Positions 2,578-58,736 of a DNA stretch of 64,000 nt are shown in pieces. Location of the stretch: the NCBI GenBank assembly GCA_031261425.1, contig JAISJR010000006.1, forward strand, positions 9,701 to 73,700. Direction: 5' to 3'. Each line of letters opens with the position of its first letter. The stretch's first letter is position 1. Source of the stretch: Planctomycetota bacterium. GTDB lineage: Bacteria > Planctomycetota > SZUA-567. A program made the translations under genes and the position numbers. The notes beneath the pieces were generated by a model. That model made no database searches. It was given only the letters and a program-made list of their open reading frames with translations, and had not been told where the DNA came from.

Positions 2578-2754
2578 ATCTCCGCTTAATTCCCCTCTAC
2601 GGAGGGGTGGCAATCGGCGGCTCTACCGCCGATTGACGGGGTGGTTTTTCGCGTTACCCCAGATTCCTTTGCGTGCTTATGGAGCAAAACGGGCAACCAC
2701 CCCGTCAGGCGAGATAGAGCGTTTCGCCTGCCACCCCTCCATAGAGGGGAATTT
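2578..2754. repeat. R5 structured element copy A (nested inverted repeats), sitting inside an R2-type palindrome
   Basis: Outer 24-bp perfect inverted repeat 'aattcccctctacggaggggtggc'/'gccacccctccatagaggggaatt', inner 'tgacggggtggtt'/'aaccaccccgtca', internal hairpins; related copies at 52501 and 57198. Confidence 0.8.
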
Positions 2755-2868
2755 AATTTGCCGCGCTTCGCGCAACTTTTAAGAACTTCGTAATTCGTAA
2801 TTTTTAATTCGTAATTTGAAACGGCGCTCACCGCGAGCGCCGACACTTACTCACAAACAGCGAATCGG

Positions 2869-4179: not shown

Positions 4180-4198
4180 AAACGCTCCTGAACAGTTC

Positions 4199-4316
4199 AA
4201 TTAACAATTAAAAATTAACAATTAACAATTGAGGAGTCATTGTTAAGACGGCGCGAAACGATTTTGAAAATAAGAACGCCACAATTTTTAATTGTCAATT
4301 GTCAATTGTTATATTG
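4199..4316. repeat. R2-type AT-rich palindromic element ('caattaacaattaaaaatt' arms)
   Basis: Inverted AT-rich arms 'caattaacaattaaaaattaacaattaacaattg' ... 'caatttttaattgtcaattgtcaattgtt' around a GC-containing core. Confidence 0.7.
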
Positions 4317-4372
4317 TGTATCTTGACGCTCGCCGCCGCTTACCTAAATTACACGCTTCGCTCATTTCGCGT

Positions 4373-6748: not shown

Positions 6749-6798
6749 ATTACGAATTAAAAATTACGAATTACGCGTAAGCAAATTTTAATTCTTAA

Positions 6799-7011
6799 CT
6801 CACGTTACGCGCCAAAAAATAGAAGCCACGAATGAACACGAAAAGAACTTAACACGAATTTTCACGAATTAGACGAATTAACACGAATTTTTTGTCCGTT
6901 CTCCGGCTCTTTATTTCGTGTAATTCGTGTAATTCGTGTAATTCGTGGACAAAAAATCTCTCTTTTTTATGCGTAAAAATTCGCGTCTTTTGGTTCACCG
7001 CATAACATCAG
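6799..7011. mobile_element. R4 MITE copy 1 (213 bp) with 7-bp TSD TTCTTAA
   Basis: Ends 'ctcacgttacgcgc...gcataacatcag'; identical 7-mer 'ttcttaa' at 6792-6798 and 7012-7018; inserted in AT-rich R2-type arms. Confidence 0.8.
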
Positions 7012-7090
7012 TTCTTAATTTTTAATTTTTAATTTGGCGCGGCGATAGATTCCATTGCCCGCCCCTCATTTACAAAAACGGAACTCACCT

Positions 7091-12850: not shown

Positions 12851-12900
12851 CGCTCTCCAATGAGTGGGCAGTAGAACAATTACCAATTAAAAATTACAAA

Positions 12901-13140
12901 CTCACGTTACGCGCAAAAAAAAGAGAAGCCACGAATGAACAAGAAAAGAACTTAACACGAATTTTCACGAATTAGACGAATTAACACGAAACCGAGCGAA
13001 GCGAAGGTTAGTGTGCTTTCCAAATTTTTTGTCCGTTTTCCGGCTCTTTAATTTCGTGTAATTCGTGTAATTCGTGGACAAAAAATCTCTTTTTTTTTAT
13101 TCGTAAAAATTCGCGTCTTTTCGTTGACCGCGTAACATCA
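12901..13140. mobile_element. R4 MITE copy 2 (240 bp) with 7-bp TSD TTACAAA
   Basis: 'ctcacgttacgcgc...gcgtaacatcag' flanked by identical 'ttacaaa' at 12894-12900 and 13141-13147; inserted into an R2 element. Confidence 0.8.
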
Positions 13141-13242
13141 GTTACAAATTAAAGATTGCGGAGTTTGATTTTTTAAATTCGCTTCGCGCACTTTCAACTG
13201 TCAACTGTCAACTGCCCACTGCCCACTGTCCACGGCGCCCCG

Positions 13243-26072: not shown

Positions 26073-26094
26073 GTTGGAGTTGACCCTCTAAATA

Positions 26095-26212
26095 CGAATT
26101 AAAAATTACAAATTAAAAATTAAAAATGATGGAGTTTGATTTTCAAATTGCGCGAAACGAATTTGAGAATCAAACTCCGCAATTTTTAATTGTGAATTTT
26201 TAATTGTGAATT
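26095..26212. repeat. R2 element (complete)
   Basis: 'aattaaaaattacaaattaaaaattaaaaat' - 'ggagtttgattttcaaattgcgcgaaacgaatttgagaatcaaactcc' - 'gcaatttttaattgtgaatttttaattgtgaatt'. Confidence 0.8.
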
Positions 26213-26215
26213 GCC

Positions 26216-27387: not shown

Positions 27388-27510
27388 TGAATTAAAAATT
27401 ACAAATTAAAAATTAAAAATTTCGGATTGATTATCAAAATTGCGCAAAGCGAATTTGAAAATCAAACTCCGTCATTTTTAATTTTTAATTTTTAATTTGT
27501 AATTGGAAAC
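27388..27510. repeat. R2 element (complete), preceded by an R1 heptamer arm 27309-27367
   Basis: Same arms and hairpin core as 26095. Confidence 0.8.
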
Positions 27511-33747: not shown

Positions 33748-33775
33748 TTTTTACTCGTTTCGTTGTCGGCAAGCA

Positions 33776-33898
33776 ATTGAAAATTAACAATTAACAATTG
33801 TGGAGTTTGATTTTTAATTCGCTTCGCGAAATTTTGACCGCGAACGCCTCAATTGTGAATTGTTAATTGTCAATTGTTAATTGTTAATTGTTAATTCT
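33776..33898. repeat. R2 element
   Basis: 'caattgaaaattaacaattaacaattg' - 'tggagtttgatttttaattcgcttcgcgaaattttgaccgcgaacgcctc' - 'aattgtgaattgttaattgtcaattgttaattg...'. Confidence 0.8.
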
Positions 33899-44617: not shown

Positions 44618-44650
44618 GACCGCGTAAATTTGGGTTGACCGCGTAACTCG

Positions 44651-44760
44651 AGTTAAAAATTACAAATTGTGGAATGGACTTAAAAATTGCGCGAAGCGAA
44701 TTTGAAAATCAAACTCCAACATTTTTAATTTTTAATTTTGAATTTTTAATTCGTAATTAT
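44651..44760. repeat. R2 element
   Basis: 'aaaaattacaaattg...gcgcgaagcgaatttgaaaatcaaactccaacatttttaatttttaattttgaatttttaatt'. Confidence 0.8.
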
Positions 44761-47045: not shown

Positions 47046-47187
47046 ATCCGCTTTTAGAGTTGAGAGTTAAGAGTGGAAAGTTGAAAGAGTGGAATTTAAG
47101 CGGATTGGCGGTCAAATATACGCGAAGCGATTTTTACCGTCAAACTCCACCATTGTTAATTGTGAATTTTTAATTGTTAATTGTGCA
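47046..47187. repeat. Composite R1 left arm + R2 right arm
   Basis: 'tagagttgagagttaagagtggaaagttgaaagagtgg...tacgcgaagcgatttttaccgtcaaactccaccattgttaattgtgaatttttaattgttaattg'. Confidence 0.7.
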
Positions 47188-52500: not shown

Positions 52501-52696
52501 TTAAATTCCCCTCTACGGAGGGCTGGGGCGGACTATCCGCTGGCAGTCCGGCGCGGTTTGCCGGACTGACGGGGTGGTTGCTCGCGTTATCCCGGATTTC
52601 GCAACGCGATTTTTGGGTATAACAGCAACCACCCCGTCATCGCGACGATACTACTGTCGCGATGCCACCCATCCGTAGAGGGGAATTAAGCGGAGA
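52501..52696. repeat. R5 structured element copy B
   Basis: Same nested TIR architecture as copy A; shares the 'cagtccggcgcggtttgccggactg' hairpin with copy C; right end 'ggggaattaagcggag'. Confidence 0.8.
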
Positions 52697-52726: not shown

Positions 52727-53767
52727 ATGTCCCTCGCCGCCGCGCTCACCGCGCCTGCCGACCGGAAAATGCTCGGCATTTTGCAAAAAATCACGCCGCT
52801 CGGCTGGGCGGCGAAAGAAATCACCCGCCGCCGTTATGAAAAATTTGCGCGTTTGGCGCTCATCGGCGCCGGCGGCGCGGTTACCCGCGCCACCCTGCCG
52901 CGCTTGTGGCAATTGGCGAACGGCGTCGCGGAAAAACTCGAAGTCGTTTGTCCCGAAATCTATATCGCCGACGCGCCGACCGTCGCCGCCAAAATCATCG
53001 GCGAAGAACAGCCGCTTTTAATGTTGCAGCGCGGGGCGCTCGCGCTGGACGAAAAAATGATGACCGTGTTATTGGCGCACGCGCTGACCGCGCTCGTCTG
53101 CGGGCATCCGCCGTATTTGGCGACGCGCGATTTGACGGCGGCGGCGGCGGATAATTTGGGCTTGTTCAAAGGCGCGACGGCATTGCCGCGGATGTTGTTG
53201 GAAGAATGGTTTTACGCCGCCGAAATGTCCGGCGACCGCGGCGCGTTATGGGTAACCGGCGACGTGGATTTAGTGCTGGAATTTTTGGGACCGCCGTCGG
53301 CGTGGGGCAAAATTCCGGCGAGCGAGTTAATCGCGCAGGGCGAGCGTTATTTGACCGCGTATCGCGAAACGCCGGCGTGTCCGCTGTTTCGCACGTGGTC
53401 GAATTTGTATTTCAATTTGCCGCGCTACGGTTTGCGGGCGGCGGAAATTAAAAAATGGGCGGACAGCGCCGAATACGCCCAATTGCGCGGCGACGAAAAA
53501 ACGGCGGCGGAGCCGGTTTATTGGGGCGCGTTTGCCGGCGATTTATCGGAAATGGAACTCGCGGCGGGCGGAGAAAATGATTTATGGTCGGAGACGCCGG
53601 ACGACCTGCGCTCGGCTGGCGACTCGCGCTCGGCTACCGACTTGCGGTCGGCTACCGACTATTTTGACGCACTCAAAAATGAAGCGCAACACCTCGCCGC
53701 CGCCGCCGCCGACTTCGCCAAAACCGGCGCCGGGGCGGTGAGTATGTGGCTGAGGAAAGCCAATTAA
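52727..53767 (+). CDS. Hypothetical protein
   Basis: 346-aa ORF with coding-like composition; no recognisable motif. Confidence 0.5.
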   Translation: MSLAAALTAPADRKMLGILQKITPLGWAAKEITRRRYEKFARLALIGAGGAVTRATLPRLWQLANGVAEKLEVVCPEIYIADAPTVAAKIIGEEQPLLMLQRGALALDEKMMTVLLAHALTALVCGHPPYLATRDLTAAAADNLGLFKGATALPRMLLEEWFYAAEMSGDRGALWVTGDVDLVLEFLGPPSAWGKIPASELIAQGERYLTAYRETPACPLFRTWSNLYFNLPRYGLRAAEIKKWADSAEYAQLRGDEKTAAEPVYWGAFAGDLSEMELAAGGENDLWSETPDDLRSAGDSRSATDLRSATDYFDALKNEAQHLAAAAADFAKTGAGAVSMWLRKAN

Positions 53768-53886
53768 CAATTGACAATTAACAATTAACAATTAAGAAAT
53801 TTGATTATCAGATTTACCGTGCGCCATTTTGACAATCTACTCCTCAATTGTTAATTGTTAATTGTCAATTGTTAATTGTAATTGCC
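53763..53886. repeat. R2-type AT-rich palindrome
   Basis: 'caattaacaattgacaattaacaattaacaattaag...ctcaattgttaattgttaattgtcaattgttaattgtaattg'. Confidence 0.8.
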
Positions 53887-53887
53887 G

Positions 53888-54778
53888 TTACGCCCGCGGG
53901 TGGAAATCGTGGTAAGTGTCGAATTTGCGGCGGTCGTGGACGTGAGTGTAAATTTCCGTCGTCGCCAAATCGACGTGTCCCAACATTTCCTGCACCGCGC
54001 GCAAATTCGCGCCGCCGGCGAGCAGGTGCGTCGCGAAACTGTGGCGCAATAAATGCGGATAGACCTTCTTCGCAATGCCGGCGCGTTTGGCGCCGGCGCG
54101 CACGATTTCATAGAGATTTTCCCGGCACATTTTTTTGCCGCGGCACGACAAAAAGGCGAACGGTTGTTGATGAAACCGGTCTAATTTCGGGCGGACGTTT
54201 TGCAAATAATTTTCTAACGCCGCCGCCGCCGGCTCGCCGAACGGCGCGACGCGGTCTTTCGTTCCCTTGCCGCGCAAGCGCAACGTCCGCGCCGGCAAGT
54301 CAATCATCCGCAAGCGCAAATCGCAAATTTCCGAGACGCGCGCCCCGCTGGCGTAAAACATTTCCAACATCGCGCGATTGCGAATCGCCAAATCACCCGT
54401 TGCTTCTCCGGCAACGCGCAACATTTTTTCGATTTCGGCGGGCGACAATTCGTCCGGCAAATAGCGGTCAAGTTTCGGCTGGTCGAGATGGTCGCAGGGA
54501 TTGTCGGGGCGGATTTTTTCGGTCAGACAAAACTTGAAAAATTGCCGCACGGTAACCAGATGCCGCGCGCGGCTGGCGGGCGCCAAACCGCGGTCGGCGA
54601 GATAGCCCGCGAAAGCGACGACATCCTCGGCAGTAATCGCGGCGATTTCGGCGCGCGCGCACTCCGCCATATAAGCGGAAAAATCCGCCAAATCGCGCTC
54701 ATACGCCTGCAACGTATTCTTCGCCAAGCCGCATTCAACCTGTAGATGCAATAGAAAATCCTTGCCGTGCGGGAGCAT
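53888..54778 (-). CDS. xerD: Tyrosine site-specific recombinase XerD/XerC
   Basis: N-terminal 'FLLHLQVECGLAKNTLQAYERDL'; catalytic 'HLLRHSFATHLL...GH...TEIYTHV' with RHRY residues. Confidence 0.85.
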   Translation of the reverse strand: MLPHGKDFLLHLQVECGLAKNTLQAYERDLADFSAYMAECARAEIAAITAEDVVAFAGYLADRGLAPASRARHLVTVRQFFKFCLTEKIRPDNPCDHLDQPKLDRYLPDELSPAEIEKMLRVAGEATGDLAIRNRAMLEMFYASGARVSEICDLRLRMIDLPARTLRLRGKGTKDRVAPFGEPAAAALENYLQNVRPKLDRFHQQPFAFLSCRGKKMCRENLYEIVRAGAKRAGIAKKVYPHLLRHSFATHLLAGGANLRAVQEMLGHVDLATTEIYTHVHDRRKFDTYHDFHPRA

Positions 54779-54824
54779 TGGAGGAGCCGTTTTTAAGGGA
54801 ATTAAAAATTACGAAAATGAGGAA

Positions 54825-55066
54825 CTCACGTTACGCGCAAAAAAAAAAGAGAAGCCACGAATGAACACGAAAAGAACTTAACACGAATTAACACGAATTA
54901 GACGAATTAACCCGAAACCGAGCGAAACGAAGGTTAGTGGGCTTTCCAAATTTTTTGTCCGTTTTCCGGCTCTTTAATTTCGTGTAATTCGTGTAATTCG
55001 TGGACAAAAAATCTCTTTTTTTTATTCGTAAAAATTCGCGTCTTTTCGTTGACCGCGTAACATCAG
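54825..55066. mobile_element. R4 MITE copy 3 (242 bp) with 7-bp TSD TGAGGAA
   Basis: 'ctcacgttacgcgc...gcgtaacatcag' flanked by 'tgaggaa' at 54818-54824 and 55067-55073. Confidence 0.8.
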
Positions 55067-55081
55067 TGAGGAATAAGGACT

Positions 55082-57197: not shown

Positions 57198-57370
57198 ATT
57201 CCCCTCTATGGAGGGGTGGCAGTCCGGCGCGGTTTGCCGGACTGACGGGGTGGTTGACGATTATACCCCAGAATCGCGCTATGGAATTTGGGGCAACGCG
57301 AAAAACCACCCCGTCAATCGGCGGCTTAACCGCCGATTGCCACCCCTCCGTAGAGGGGAATTAAGCGGAG
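57198..57370. repeat. R5 structured element copy C
   Basis: 'attcccctctatggaggggtggc...gccacccctccgtagaggggaattaagcggag' with inner 'tgacggggtggtt/aaccaccccgtca'. Confidence 0.8.
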
Positions 57371-57399
57371 GTTATTCAACTCAAATAAGGAACCCCCCG

Positions 57400-57885
57400 A
57401 TGAAAACTTGGTTTTTACTTGCGTTGGCAGTGGTGTTGACCGGTTGCGGCGGGTCGATTTTGAGCCAATTCGCCGGCGAGTGGGGGCAATTCTCGGACGA
57501 CCGCAACGACGTTACGGCGATTCGCGCCGGTATGCGCACGACCGACATTTTGCCGAAAATCGGCAAGCCGGAAAAAATCGAAGCCGGCGAAAACATCTAT
57601 GCCGGCTGGCAGGAATGGATTTATCCGACCGGCAGTTTGTTGGTTTATCGCGGGGAAGTGAAGCAGGTCTTCGCCGAGACGCGCGACGCCGACACAATGG
57701 CGAAATTGGCGAAAGCCAACGCCAAGGGCTTTGACCTCGGCTTTGAGAGCGACAAAAAAGAAAACAAAAAGACCAAAGAAGAAGAACTCGCCGAACAAGA
57801 AAAAATGATGTGGGGCGTCAATGAAAAAACGAAAAACAATAAATATCGCGAACTCGACCGCGACGGATTTAGCGCGGTGAAATAA
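57400..57885 (+). CDS. Lipoprotein (possibly BamE/SmpA-OmlA-like)
   Basis: 'MKTWFLLALAVVLTGCGG' lipobox; the earlier ATG at 57208 lies inside R5 copy C. Confidence 0.55.
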   Translation: MKTWFLLALAVVLTGCGGSILSQFAGEWGQFSDDRNDVTAIRAGMRTTDILPKIGKPEKIEAGENIYAGWQEWIYPTGSLLVYRGEVKQVFAETRDADTMAKLAKANAKGFDLGFESDKKENKKTKEEELAEQEKMMWGVNEKTKNNKYRELDRDGFSAVK

Positions 57886-57886
57886 G

Positions 57887-57987
57887 AGTTAAAAGTTGAG
57901 AGTTGAGAGTTGAGCGGAGGTTGCGCTTCGCGCATTTTTAAGATAACTCCACCGCTAAACTCTAATCTCTTAACTCTAAACTCTGCT
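57887..57987. repeat. R1 heptamer-array palindrome (canonical core)
   Basis: 'agagttaaaagttgagagttgagagttgagcggaggttgcgcttcgcgcatttttaagataactccaccgctaaactctaatctcttaactctaaactct'. Confidence 0.85.
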
Positions 57988-57998
57988 CACGAATCACT

Positions 57999-58610
57999 AT
58001 GCAAAAATTCGACATCAAAAAAATCCTGCTGACGGTGCTTGCGGGCATCTCTTTGCCGCAGGTGCGGCGGCTGATTTTTTTGATCTTCGGCATCGCGATT
58101 GCGGCGATTATCACGACGATGGCGGTGGTGCTGATTGCGGAGTGGGAGGACGAAGACACGACGGCGCTCGGCAAAGAACGGTTGCAGACGCTTTACGCGG
58201 CGGTGAAGAAATTTCAGTCCGAAGAATACTTCGCGCGTCCGCCGAAAAATTTAACCGAATTGTTGGATTTGCCGCCACGCGCGGCGCGCGAGCCGGAAGT
58301 CGTCCCGCTACTCGCGGACGCCGCCGCCTTGCGCCTGCCGCGCGCGGCTTCCGCCGCCGACGAGTCCGATTTTTGGCTCGTGCCGTATTACGATTTTTCG
58401 CTCCCCGCCAACGCGATTATTTTGTTAGACCGTCCGGGAAATTACGCGCGCGGCGGACACCTCGTGTTCAACGACGGCACGCTGATTTTTTTGAGCGCGT
58501 CCGCCGCCGATTACCGGCGTTTCGCGCAGGCGGTAATGGAGCGCCGCGACCGCGATTTTGTGCGGGCGCAATCCGCCGGTTGCTCTATCGTCGGTTTCAA
58601 GAGCAATTAA
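57999..58610 (+). CDS. Hypothetical membrane-anchored protein
   Basis: N-terminal TM helix, coding-like composition. Confidence 0.5.
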   Translation: MQKFDIKKILLTVLAGISLPQVRRLIFLIFGIAIAAIITTMAVVLIAEWEDEDTTALGKERLQTLYAAVKKFQSEEYFARPPKNLTELLDLPPRAAREPEVVPLLADAAALRLPRAASAADESDFWLVPYYDFSLPANAIILLDRPGNYARGGHLVFNDGTLIFLSASAADYRRFAQAVMERRDRDFVRAQSAGCSIVGFKSN

Positions 58611-58736
58611 CAATTTACAATTTACAATTAACAATGGTGGAGTTTTTATTGGCAAATCCGCAAGCGCTCGCGAAGCGAATCTTTGACCATAAAACTCCGC
58701 AATTGTTAATTGTTAATTGTGAATTGTGAATTGTTC
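58604..58736. repeat. R2 element
   Basis: 'caattaacaatttacaatttacaattaacaatggtggagtttttattggcaaatccgcaagcgctcgcgaagcgaatctttgaccataaaactccgcaattgttaattgttaattgtgaattgtgaattg'. Confidence 0.8.

Follow-up and report, generated by a model that had tools for sequence, protein, structure and literature searches.

We consider it likely that the repeat R5, which occurs in three full copies in the 64-kb stretch of Planctomycetota DNA analyzed here (the window), is a gene-less, non-autonomous member of a family of palindromic cassettes, the full-length members of which carry a gene for a DUF559 nuclease. The arms of R5 are homologous to those found on either side of DUF559 genes in many phyla, and the words of these arms shift with the protein clade. 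Near-identical copies occupy several loci within one genome, and presence or absence of the element varies at orthologous sites in close relatives.

Architecture and setting of the window copies

The copies are located at 2588-2753 (copy A), 52504-52687 (copy B) and 57198-57362 (copy C). The initial annotation had reported all three, and they are indeed present when trimmed to their conserved ends. R5 is noncoding, has a size of 165-185 nt and is mirror-symmetric, being composed of two inverted arms around a centre of ~48 nt. In an alignment of the arms from both strands, the order is AATT, a hairpin (CCCCTC-N4-GAGGGG), TGGC, a variable mini-hairpin (~25 nt in the window arms) and the inner box TGACGGGGTGGTT. 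The 3' stem of the outer hairpin runs on as GGGGTGGC in the window arms.

Copy A extends from AATT to AATT. Its left outer hairpin, CCCCTC-TACG-GAGGGG (2592-2607), continues with its 3' stem into the first G-rich box, GGGGTGG (2604-2610). The left mini-hairpin, CAATCGGCGG-ctcta-CCGCCGATTG (2611-2635), is followed by the left inner box TGACGGGGTGGTT, which is the second G-rich box (2634-2646). The variable centre of 48 nt (2647-2694) corresponds to the position of the DUF559 gene in related units. On the right side, the inner box AACCACCCCGTCA (2695-2707), a variable mini-hairpin, CAGGCGA...TCGCCTG (2706-2730), and the outer hairpin CCCCTC-CATA-GAGGGG (2734-2749) follow. In copy B, the outer hairpins (52508-52523 and 52668-52683) have one substitution each, the mini-hairpins are found at 52544-52568 and 52638-52664, and the inner boxes (52567-52579 and 52627-52639) enclose the centre (52580-52626). 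The corresponding features of copy C are the outer hairpins at 57201-57216 and 57343-57358, the mini-hairpins at 57220-57244 and 57315-57339, the inner boxes at 57243-57255 and 57304-57316, and the centre at 57256-57303. A seventh, degenerate arm was found on the reverse strand (765-834) with a profile built from the six arms (nhmmer E-value 8e-10). It consists of CACCGCCCCGTCA, a hairpin and TGCCACCCCTCCGTAGA[acatacaa]GAGGGGAATT, and is directly beyond the stop codon of a gene encoded on the same strand (838-2508).

The inner inverted repeat (TGACGGGGTGGTT/AACCACCCCGTCA), which had been described as such before, is identical in all six window arms. When up to two mismatches are permitted, it has 9 matches in the window (1.08 expected). 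The outer 22-mer has 6 matches (0.00 expected). The outer repeat of 24 nt, itself a local palindrome (CCCCTC-N4-GAGGGG), had been called perfect. This is an overstatement: 23 of the 24 positions agree in copies A and C, and copy B has three substitutions and an insertion of 17 nt. This insertion (GGCGGACTATCCGCTGG, 52527-52543) is confined to the left arm of copy B, where it makes an extra small hairpin. The apparent shuffling of small hairpins between copies turned out to be an effect of orientation, copy A merely being inverted relative to copies B and C. Once A is inverted, the left mini-hairpin of C is that of B and its right mini-hairpin is that of A, as had been proposed; the latter stem is that of the left mini-hairpin of A as it is read in the window.

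Copy A is located between a 556-aa gene without known function and an amidohydrolase gene, copy B between a SAM methyltransferase gene and a gene without known function, and copy C between htpG and a lipoprotein gene. Each copy ends 37-79 nt upstream of a start codon (39 nt upstream of the ATG at 52727 for copy B; 37 nt upstream of the lipoprotein gene ATG at 57400 for copy C), and the three downstream genes are unrelated to each other. The true start of the lipoprotein gene is at 57400 and not at the ORF start at 57208. Spurious small ORFs or N-terminal extensions beside or across the elements are seen in the window (2586-2846, reverse strand; 57208-57885, forward strand) and in a related locus (L110, 5914-6063). 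Public short-read (Logan) contigs of the source organism break at R5.

The window contains a second abundant family of palindromic intergenic repeats, which consist of a 7-bp tandem array (AATTAAA, AATTGTT and AACTCTC types), a core (GGAGTTTGATTTTCAAATT-GCGCGAARCG-AATTTGARAATCAAACTCC) and an inverted array. Examples are found at 26090-26215, 58604-58734, 27389-27510 and 44650-44760, and further ones at 47084-47187, 53761-53880, 33767-33898 and 4198-4318; 7-bp arrays are present in most intergenic regions of the window. Copy A is at the apex of one such larger palindrome (2537-2568 and 2764-2817). To its left, an array (2537-2557) is followed by GGCGCGAAGCG (2558-2568); to its right, CGCTTCGCGC (2764-2773) is followed by an inverted array (2790-2817). 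The motif ctccgcttaatt, which flanks R5 and had been taken for an extension of the outer repeat, is found on one side only of each copy and is the junction motif of the 7-bp-array family. It is attributed to this neighbouring repeat family or to the target and not to R5, because relatives keep ctccgcttaatt beside a solo hairpin. On a metagenome contig (L122; Ga0123356_10141492, ~1032-1379), inverted 7-bp arrays, (AATGCAG)n, are found on both sides of a DUF559 cassette, so that 7-bp-array palindromes accompany an R5-type element outside the window genome, too. A separate repeat of ~250 nt, rich in short repeats of the ACGAATTAACACGAA type, has three copies (~6783-7039, 12885-13142 and 54809-55067) that are 94-97% identical.

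DUF559 genes between related arms

Relatives of R5 were searched for with a pattern of two inner boxes, 35-65 nt apart, in the contigs of one genome per species. This resulted in at least 107 loci, compared to ~2 matches expected by chance (our own estimate). The outer hairpin (CCCCTCC-loop-GGAGGGGTGG) recurs in nearly all of the loci listed, together with a mini-hairpin and the mirrored arrangement of the arms. They are from Acidobacteriota (Pyrinomonadaceae, Blastocatellia, Chloracidobacterium and 'gp5'), Bacteroidota (Chryseobacterium, Emticicia and Flavobacteriales), Burkholderiales (Proteobacteria), Cloacimonadota and termite-gut MAGs. Another locus listed is from Pseudonocardia (L051), and one from Kineococcus (L077) looks like a chance match. 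Cores are inside open frames of at least 150 codons in 51 of 110 cases, compared to 82% for random positions, in what is a crude test on GC-rich DNA. Phages and plasmids were considered as carriers, and the case for either is weak. One viral contig has a full core and 35 have single arms, one of these 35 with the gene; a relative was found in 36 of 72,556 plasmid records, always with less than 60% identity.

Clustering of the ORFs from the loci listed revealed a group of proteins of 115-185 aa that adjoin the element in two phyla. These are DUF559 proteins (PF04480; Pfam E-values 1e-15 to 1e-30), with a Vsr-like PD-(D/E)XK nuclease domain. A DUF559 gene is nearby in 13 of the 107 loci listed; the nucleases encoded between the two inner boxes have a size of 115-145 aa. 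The clearest cases of a gene between the arms are four loci from Chryseobacterium (L013, 4150-4690; L030, 700-1240; L052, 6310-6845; L085, 4951-5490) and one from Crocinitomicaceae (L020, 2658-3295); a locus from Acidobacteria (L012) has the gene and keeps the start-side box only. In units that retain the box, the distance from one inner box to the gene start is 20-31 nt (examples from Bacteroidota and Acidobacteriota); in L013 and L085, the gene extends at its 3' end up to the inner box on the opposite side. In gene-bearing units inspected by eye, the inner G-rich box is 3-9 nt before the ATG and resembles a ribosome-binding site. In a termite-gut MAG (L107), the outer hairpin is identical to that of the window (CCCCTCTATGGAGGGGTGGC); there, the gene is placed after a complete short element and has a downstream arm only.

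In Chryseobacterium, units with and without the gene share the same arms and occur in tandem. In L013, the centre of the short copy resembles both ends of the long-copy centre, which fits internal deletion. The tandem arrays (L085, 4430-5520; L013, 3820-4900) have repeated spacers of ~100 nt, and they adjoin the same gene in seven Chryseobacterium loci. Judged from its sequence, this gene (661-671 aa) presumably codes for urocanate hydratase. Single arms upstream of DUF559 genes are often tandem-duplicated or nested (L117, L119 and L121); in L119, one arm interrupts the mini-hairpin stem of another.

The gene is also found between the same arms in two cultured species, Thiothrix nivea DSM 5205 and Advenella alkanexedens. 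The T. nivea cassette (L195, 1380-2100) is embedded in a type I restriction-modification operon; it has the gene for the specificity subunit on one side and an MNT/HepT pair on the other, and the methylase gene is downstream of it. Endomicrobia, Firmicutes, Verrucomicrobiota, and Beta- and Gammaproteobacteria have close homologues that are 60-70% identical. By tblastn, a DUF559 gene was found neither in the window (64 kb) nor in the loci of its relatives (18-19 kb), and a remnant of such a gene is not recognizable in the centres of the window copies. DUF559 is the only gene found between matching ends; a transposase gene was not encountered at this position in any genome examined.

We know of no biochemical activity for DUF559 proteins of the cassette kind. 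The nuclease profile matches PDB entry 3hrl (E-value 1.7e-26) and the catalytic domain of I-Bth0305I (3r3p; E-value 6.6e-7). The latter is a homodimeric homing endonuclease that is most specific for a pseudopalindrome of 14 bp with the cut at its centre (PMC3239194).

In a reverse test, DUF559 genes were retrieved from metagenome contigs by protein similarity alone, without any DNA pattern, using an alignment of seven cassette proteins as query. DUF559 relatives were present in 563 of 600 candidate stretches, and the best 80 of these 563 were kept. Flanking inverted repeats exceed the 99th percentile of control ORFs in 66% of the best 80 DUF559 genes. The median score for flanking repeats is 37.5, compared to 16 for control ORFs of the same loci (Mann-Whitney p = 8e-21). 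An upstream C-rich/G-rich hairpin was found for 66 of 78 DUF559 genes, and the word of its 3' stem recurs before the start codon in 33 of the 66 hairpin-bearing loci. The exact words GGGGTGG/CCACCCC are used in 21 of 25 loci with at least 50% protein identity but in 14 of 53 loci below this level. There, the design is the same and other words replace them, as in AATTCCCCCTT-aagaa-AGGGGG-agt-AAGGGGGTTGTT-ATG ... AACAACCCCCT-ttat-CCCCCTT-ttct-AAGGGGGAAAT. Since word use tracks protein identity, the arms change together with the protein. The profile of the six window arms, which is insensitive because the mini-hairpins vary, has 19 matches in 280 kb of DUF559 loci. Of these, 12 are directly beside a DUF559 gene and in the expected orientation (best E-value 5.5e-10). 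The chance rate of such gene-adjacent matches is ~9%, giving p near 1e-8 by our own binomial estimate.

Turnover of copies and the origin of the palindromes

The HtpG of the window is 100% identical to that of a Planctomycetota MAG, and three 'Planctomycetales' assemblies (GCA_025997475.1, GCA_026001765.1 and GCA_026001705.1) encode an HtpG that is 96% identical to it. At the site of copy C, these relatives have just GCTTAATT-CCCCTCCATAGAGGGG-AATAAGAG, a single hairpin of 16 nt. The window has 141 additional nt, bounded by a 6-nt direct repeat (CCCCTC) that is element sequence. Outgroups (HtpG 72-73% identical), consulted for polarizing this polymorphism, have neither synteny nor the element. 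Therefore, insertion and deletion between the 6-nt repeats fit the copy C site equally. The reverse situation is found at a second site, where the relatives have a full B-like copy between a 161-aa and a 201-aa gene and the window (57886-57998) has a different repeat module in its place. The position of copy B corresponds to the right-hand 7-bp array of another palindromic element in one relative (L112). Since the window and L112 do not agree in gene order there, an empty site cannot be defined for copy B. The break in gene order coincides exactly with copy B (window 52727-54778 vs. L112 9483-10880): in the window, genes of 346 aa and 296 aa are placed between the methyltransferase gene and htpG, and the relative has an RND membrane-fusion gene there.

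In an acidobacterial genome (gp5 AA68), at least six copies that are nearly identical were found, each at a locus of its own (L011, L015, L017, L061, L062 and L081). They have a unit of ~330 nt in common whose ends are the two halves of a palindrome (CCCCTCCTAA...TTAGGAGGGG), which is what insertion into the loop of a solo hairpin would produce. R5 copies come and go among close relatives. A consistent target-site duplication was found neither at copies A-C nor by comparison of the filled and empty copy C site. The TA/TTA duplication hinted at by the initial annotation is accordingly unsupported; the flanks of the copies have no consistent direct repeat, and the AATT belongs to the end that is conserved across phyla.

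The main rival explanation is that the palindromes came first. They would be REP-like sequences, kept or spread by the host or by another enzyme and perhaps serving as a protein-binding site or mRNA stabilizer, and DUF559 would be a later parasite, a free-standing homing endonuclease with their centre as its target. Several observations agree with this. Gene-less copies far outnumber gene-bearing ones (the 13 in 107 loci listed given above), the window and the loci of its relatives have no DUF559 gene, and the nearest relative of known function is a homing endonuclease. In addition, palindromic intergenic modules of other kinds abound in the window genome, and R5 and these modules replace each other. 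The geometry of the cassettes points the other way, however. The gene starts 20-31 nt past the inner box and extends to the opposite box in L013 and L085, and in L013 the short centres resemble the ends of the long unit after trimming. Furthermore, the arm words shift with the protein clade, which fits a protein that recognizes its own arms. We thus regard a palindromes-first origin as unlikely and prefer the interpretation of R5 as a gene-less cassette.

Covariation had been proposed to indicate selection on structure, either of a mobile element with terminal inverted repeats or of an expressed RNA. That pairing is kept despite sequence change is borne out by the data. In an ungapped set of 19 arms, compensatory changes are found in 5 of 6 mini-hairpin pairs. 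The covariation score is 0.529, compared to 0.123 for shuffled sequences (none of 500 shuffles was as high) and at most 0.121 with slid partners. For 143 distinct mini-hairpin segments, the mean folding energy is -6.8 kcal/mol, compared to -2.9 kcal/mol for shuffles, and their stems fill the whole interval between the two boxes. Single strands of R5 are predicted to adopt a four-way-junction fold, with z-scores of -11.6 to -13.6 for the three copies. Fold energies are -67 kcal/mol for copy C as DNA, and -133 and -112 kcal/mol for copies B and A as RNA.

A structured RNA that is expressed and selected for its fold, as a cis-regulatory 5' leader or as a small RNA, might be suspected from this very stable predicted fold (-112 to -133 kcal/mol as RNA, z ~-13), from the covarying mini-hairpins, from the location of all three copies 37-79 nt upstream of a start codon and from the inner G-rich box 3-9 nt before the ATG in the gene-bearing units inspected by eye. 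Both strands fold equally well, however. Mini-hairpins contain 62 G-T pairs on one strand and 77 on the other, so that G-T versus A-C reveals no strand asymmetry, and the conserved words are strictly mirror-symmetric. At the gathering threshold, Rfam finds one tRNA only in the window and nothing in three gene-bearing loci (L195, L196 and L085); an E-value scan of copy C returned only sub-threshold matches to generic long-hairpin miRNA models. The hairpins are not followed by a U-tract. There is no relationship between the downstream genes, and the same lipoprotein gene is preceded by the element in the window but by just the 16-nt hairpin in the relatives. Given the lack of strand bias, the symmetry, the Rfam result, the unrelated downstream genes and the variable presence of the element, covariation does not point to RNA. 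Selection for RNA is unnecessary to explain the copies, and we consider this interpretation quite improbable. Being located 37-79 nt before start codons, the window copies are nevertheless probably transcribed as part of leaders.

Proposed mechanism and relation to known systems

In the cassette, each arm comprises three copies of one half-site. A C-rich and a G-rich half-site form the outer palindrome of 16-20 bp (CCCCTC-N4-GAGGGG), and the second G-rich half-site (GACGGGGTGG) comes after the variable mini-hairpin. The arms are inverted around a centre that is either ~50 nt long or is the nuclease gene. From these features we infer how R5 moves. The nuclease, probably a dimer, would recognize the palindromic half-sites and cut there. 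The element may then spread or be lost via break repair, by homing-like copying into a solo palindrome or, alternatively, by cut-and-rejoin at the two outer palindromes. The single palindrome at the empty copy C site, compared to two at the filled site, fits such cutting and copying without proving it, and the same applies to the split palindrome that bounds the gp5 AA68 unit. The window copies may depend on a nuclease that is encoded elsewhere in the genome, or they may be recent relics; a trans-acting nuclease in the source genome is assumed.

Our best reading is that R5 works like a MITE or a REPIN, yet is tied to a DUF559 nuclease and not to a transposase. MITEs, including the Correia elements of Neisseria, are noncoding, have terminal inverted repeats, are intergenic and often found in leaders, and are variably present among strains. 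Their short copies look like products of internal deletion from a longer coding unit. R5 is similar in being noncoding, in having a size of ~165-185 bp with 24-nt ends that agree at 23 of 24 positions, and in occurring as three copies plus one arm in 64 kb. It differs in having neither a target-site duplication nor a DDE transposase parent. Each of its ends is a palindrome in its own right, and one such palindrome stays at the empty site. It is thus highly improbable that R5 is a fragment of a classical transposase-encoding IS or an ordinary MITE that originates from such an IS and is mobilized by it, even though it is small and intergenic, with inverted ends, several copies and variable presence, because it has no target-site duplication, DUF559 is the only gene between matching ends in any genome and no larger element with R5 ends (AATTCCCCTC...GAGGGGAATT) surrounds the copies in the window. 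Of the proposals in the initial annotation, mobile DNA with terminal inverted repeats is supported by the inverted ends, the variable presence and the ends shared with gene-bearing units. Recognition by a transposase is not, given the DUF559 partner and the missing target-site duplication. The proposed expressed structured RNA is not favoured by the findings described above, and R5 is not part of any known IS.

In BIMEs, intergenic regions are built from interchangeable palindromic modules. This resembles the alternation of R5 with palindromes having 7-bp tandem-array arms in this genome, but the sequences are unrelated and the phylum is different. R5 also differs, as judged by eye, from integron attC sites: its ends are AATTCCCCTC and not RYYYAAC...GTTRRRY cores, and there is no integrase among the listed neighbours. 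Compared to the proposed DUF559 cassette family itself, all six window arms have the arm design, and the absence of an ORF between the boxes makes the copies the gene-less form.

The likeness to REPIN/RAYT systems is close. Short extragenic palindromes are paired in inverted orientation into a long hairpin (PMC3116915, PMC3337134), there are many gene-less copies per genome as well as tandem clusters, and a single small gene of nuclease type is flanked by the same units. The partner here is, however, a Vsr-like DUF559 protein of the PD-(D/E)XK type and not an HUH/Y1 transposase. An R5 arm consists of three half-sites and a freely varying mini-hairpin. There is no conserved GTAG tetranucleotide, and the loop and foot of R5 vary by lineage (TACG, TTACGAA, TTT, TGT and others). 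REPIN-RAYT systems have been described as mostly vertically inherited (PMC3116915, PMC3337134). The 60-70% identity of cassette proteins across phyla points to horizontal spread.

The cassettes share the Vsr-like nuclease fold (3r3p, E-value 6.6e-7) with I-Bth0305I, a member of the Vsr-like 'EDxHD' homing endonucleases (PMC3239194). A homodimer with a pseudopalindromic target, as reported for this enzyme (PMC3239194), would suit the outer palindrome of R5. Unlike enzymes of this type, the cassettes are not located in introns or inteins, have their own structured inverted arms and yield gene-less miniatures that are scattered in intergenic DNA. The cassette protein is devoid of the large N-terminal DNA-binding region of I-Bth0305I.

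It is tempting to speculate further. DUF559 cassettes may constitute an undescribed class of selfish elements, consisting of a minimal Vsr-like nuclease and two mirrored arms with three half-sites each. Such elements would move by cutting a palindrome of 16-20 bp, with a single palindrome representing the empty and two the filled site, would spawn R5-like miniatures and would have spread horizontally through at least eight phyla. We consider this proposal plausible but somewhat short of probable. In the literature outside subscription journals, searches for the conserved words and for DUF559, PF04480, ycjD and Vsr-like units resulted in no description of such arms around DUF559 genes, of a mobile DUF559 unit or of its miniature derivatives. 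Surveys of PD-(D/E)XK nucleases merely list DUF559 beside Vsr.

If the cassette interpretation is correct, a major branch of DUF559 would obtain a selfish-element context, via its covarying palindromic arms and gene-less copies. To our knowledge, this very large protein family is without an assigned role; its members are publicly named 'endonuclease domain-containing protein' or 'very-short-patch-repair endonuclease'. DUF559 nucleases would be a third kind of partner enzyme for bacterial miniature repeats, beside DDE transposases and RAYTs. The cassettes would also explain why contigs of metagenome assemblies recurrently break and why spurious small ORFs are predicted in them. In the source genome, the leaders of at least three genes carry a very stable structure that was recently gained or lost. 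The window copies may thus affect the expression of the genes downstream of them.
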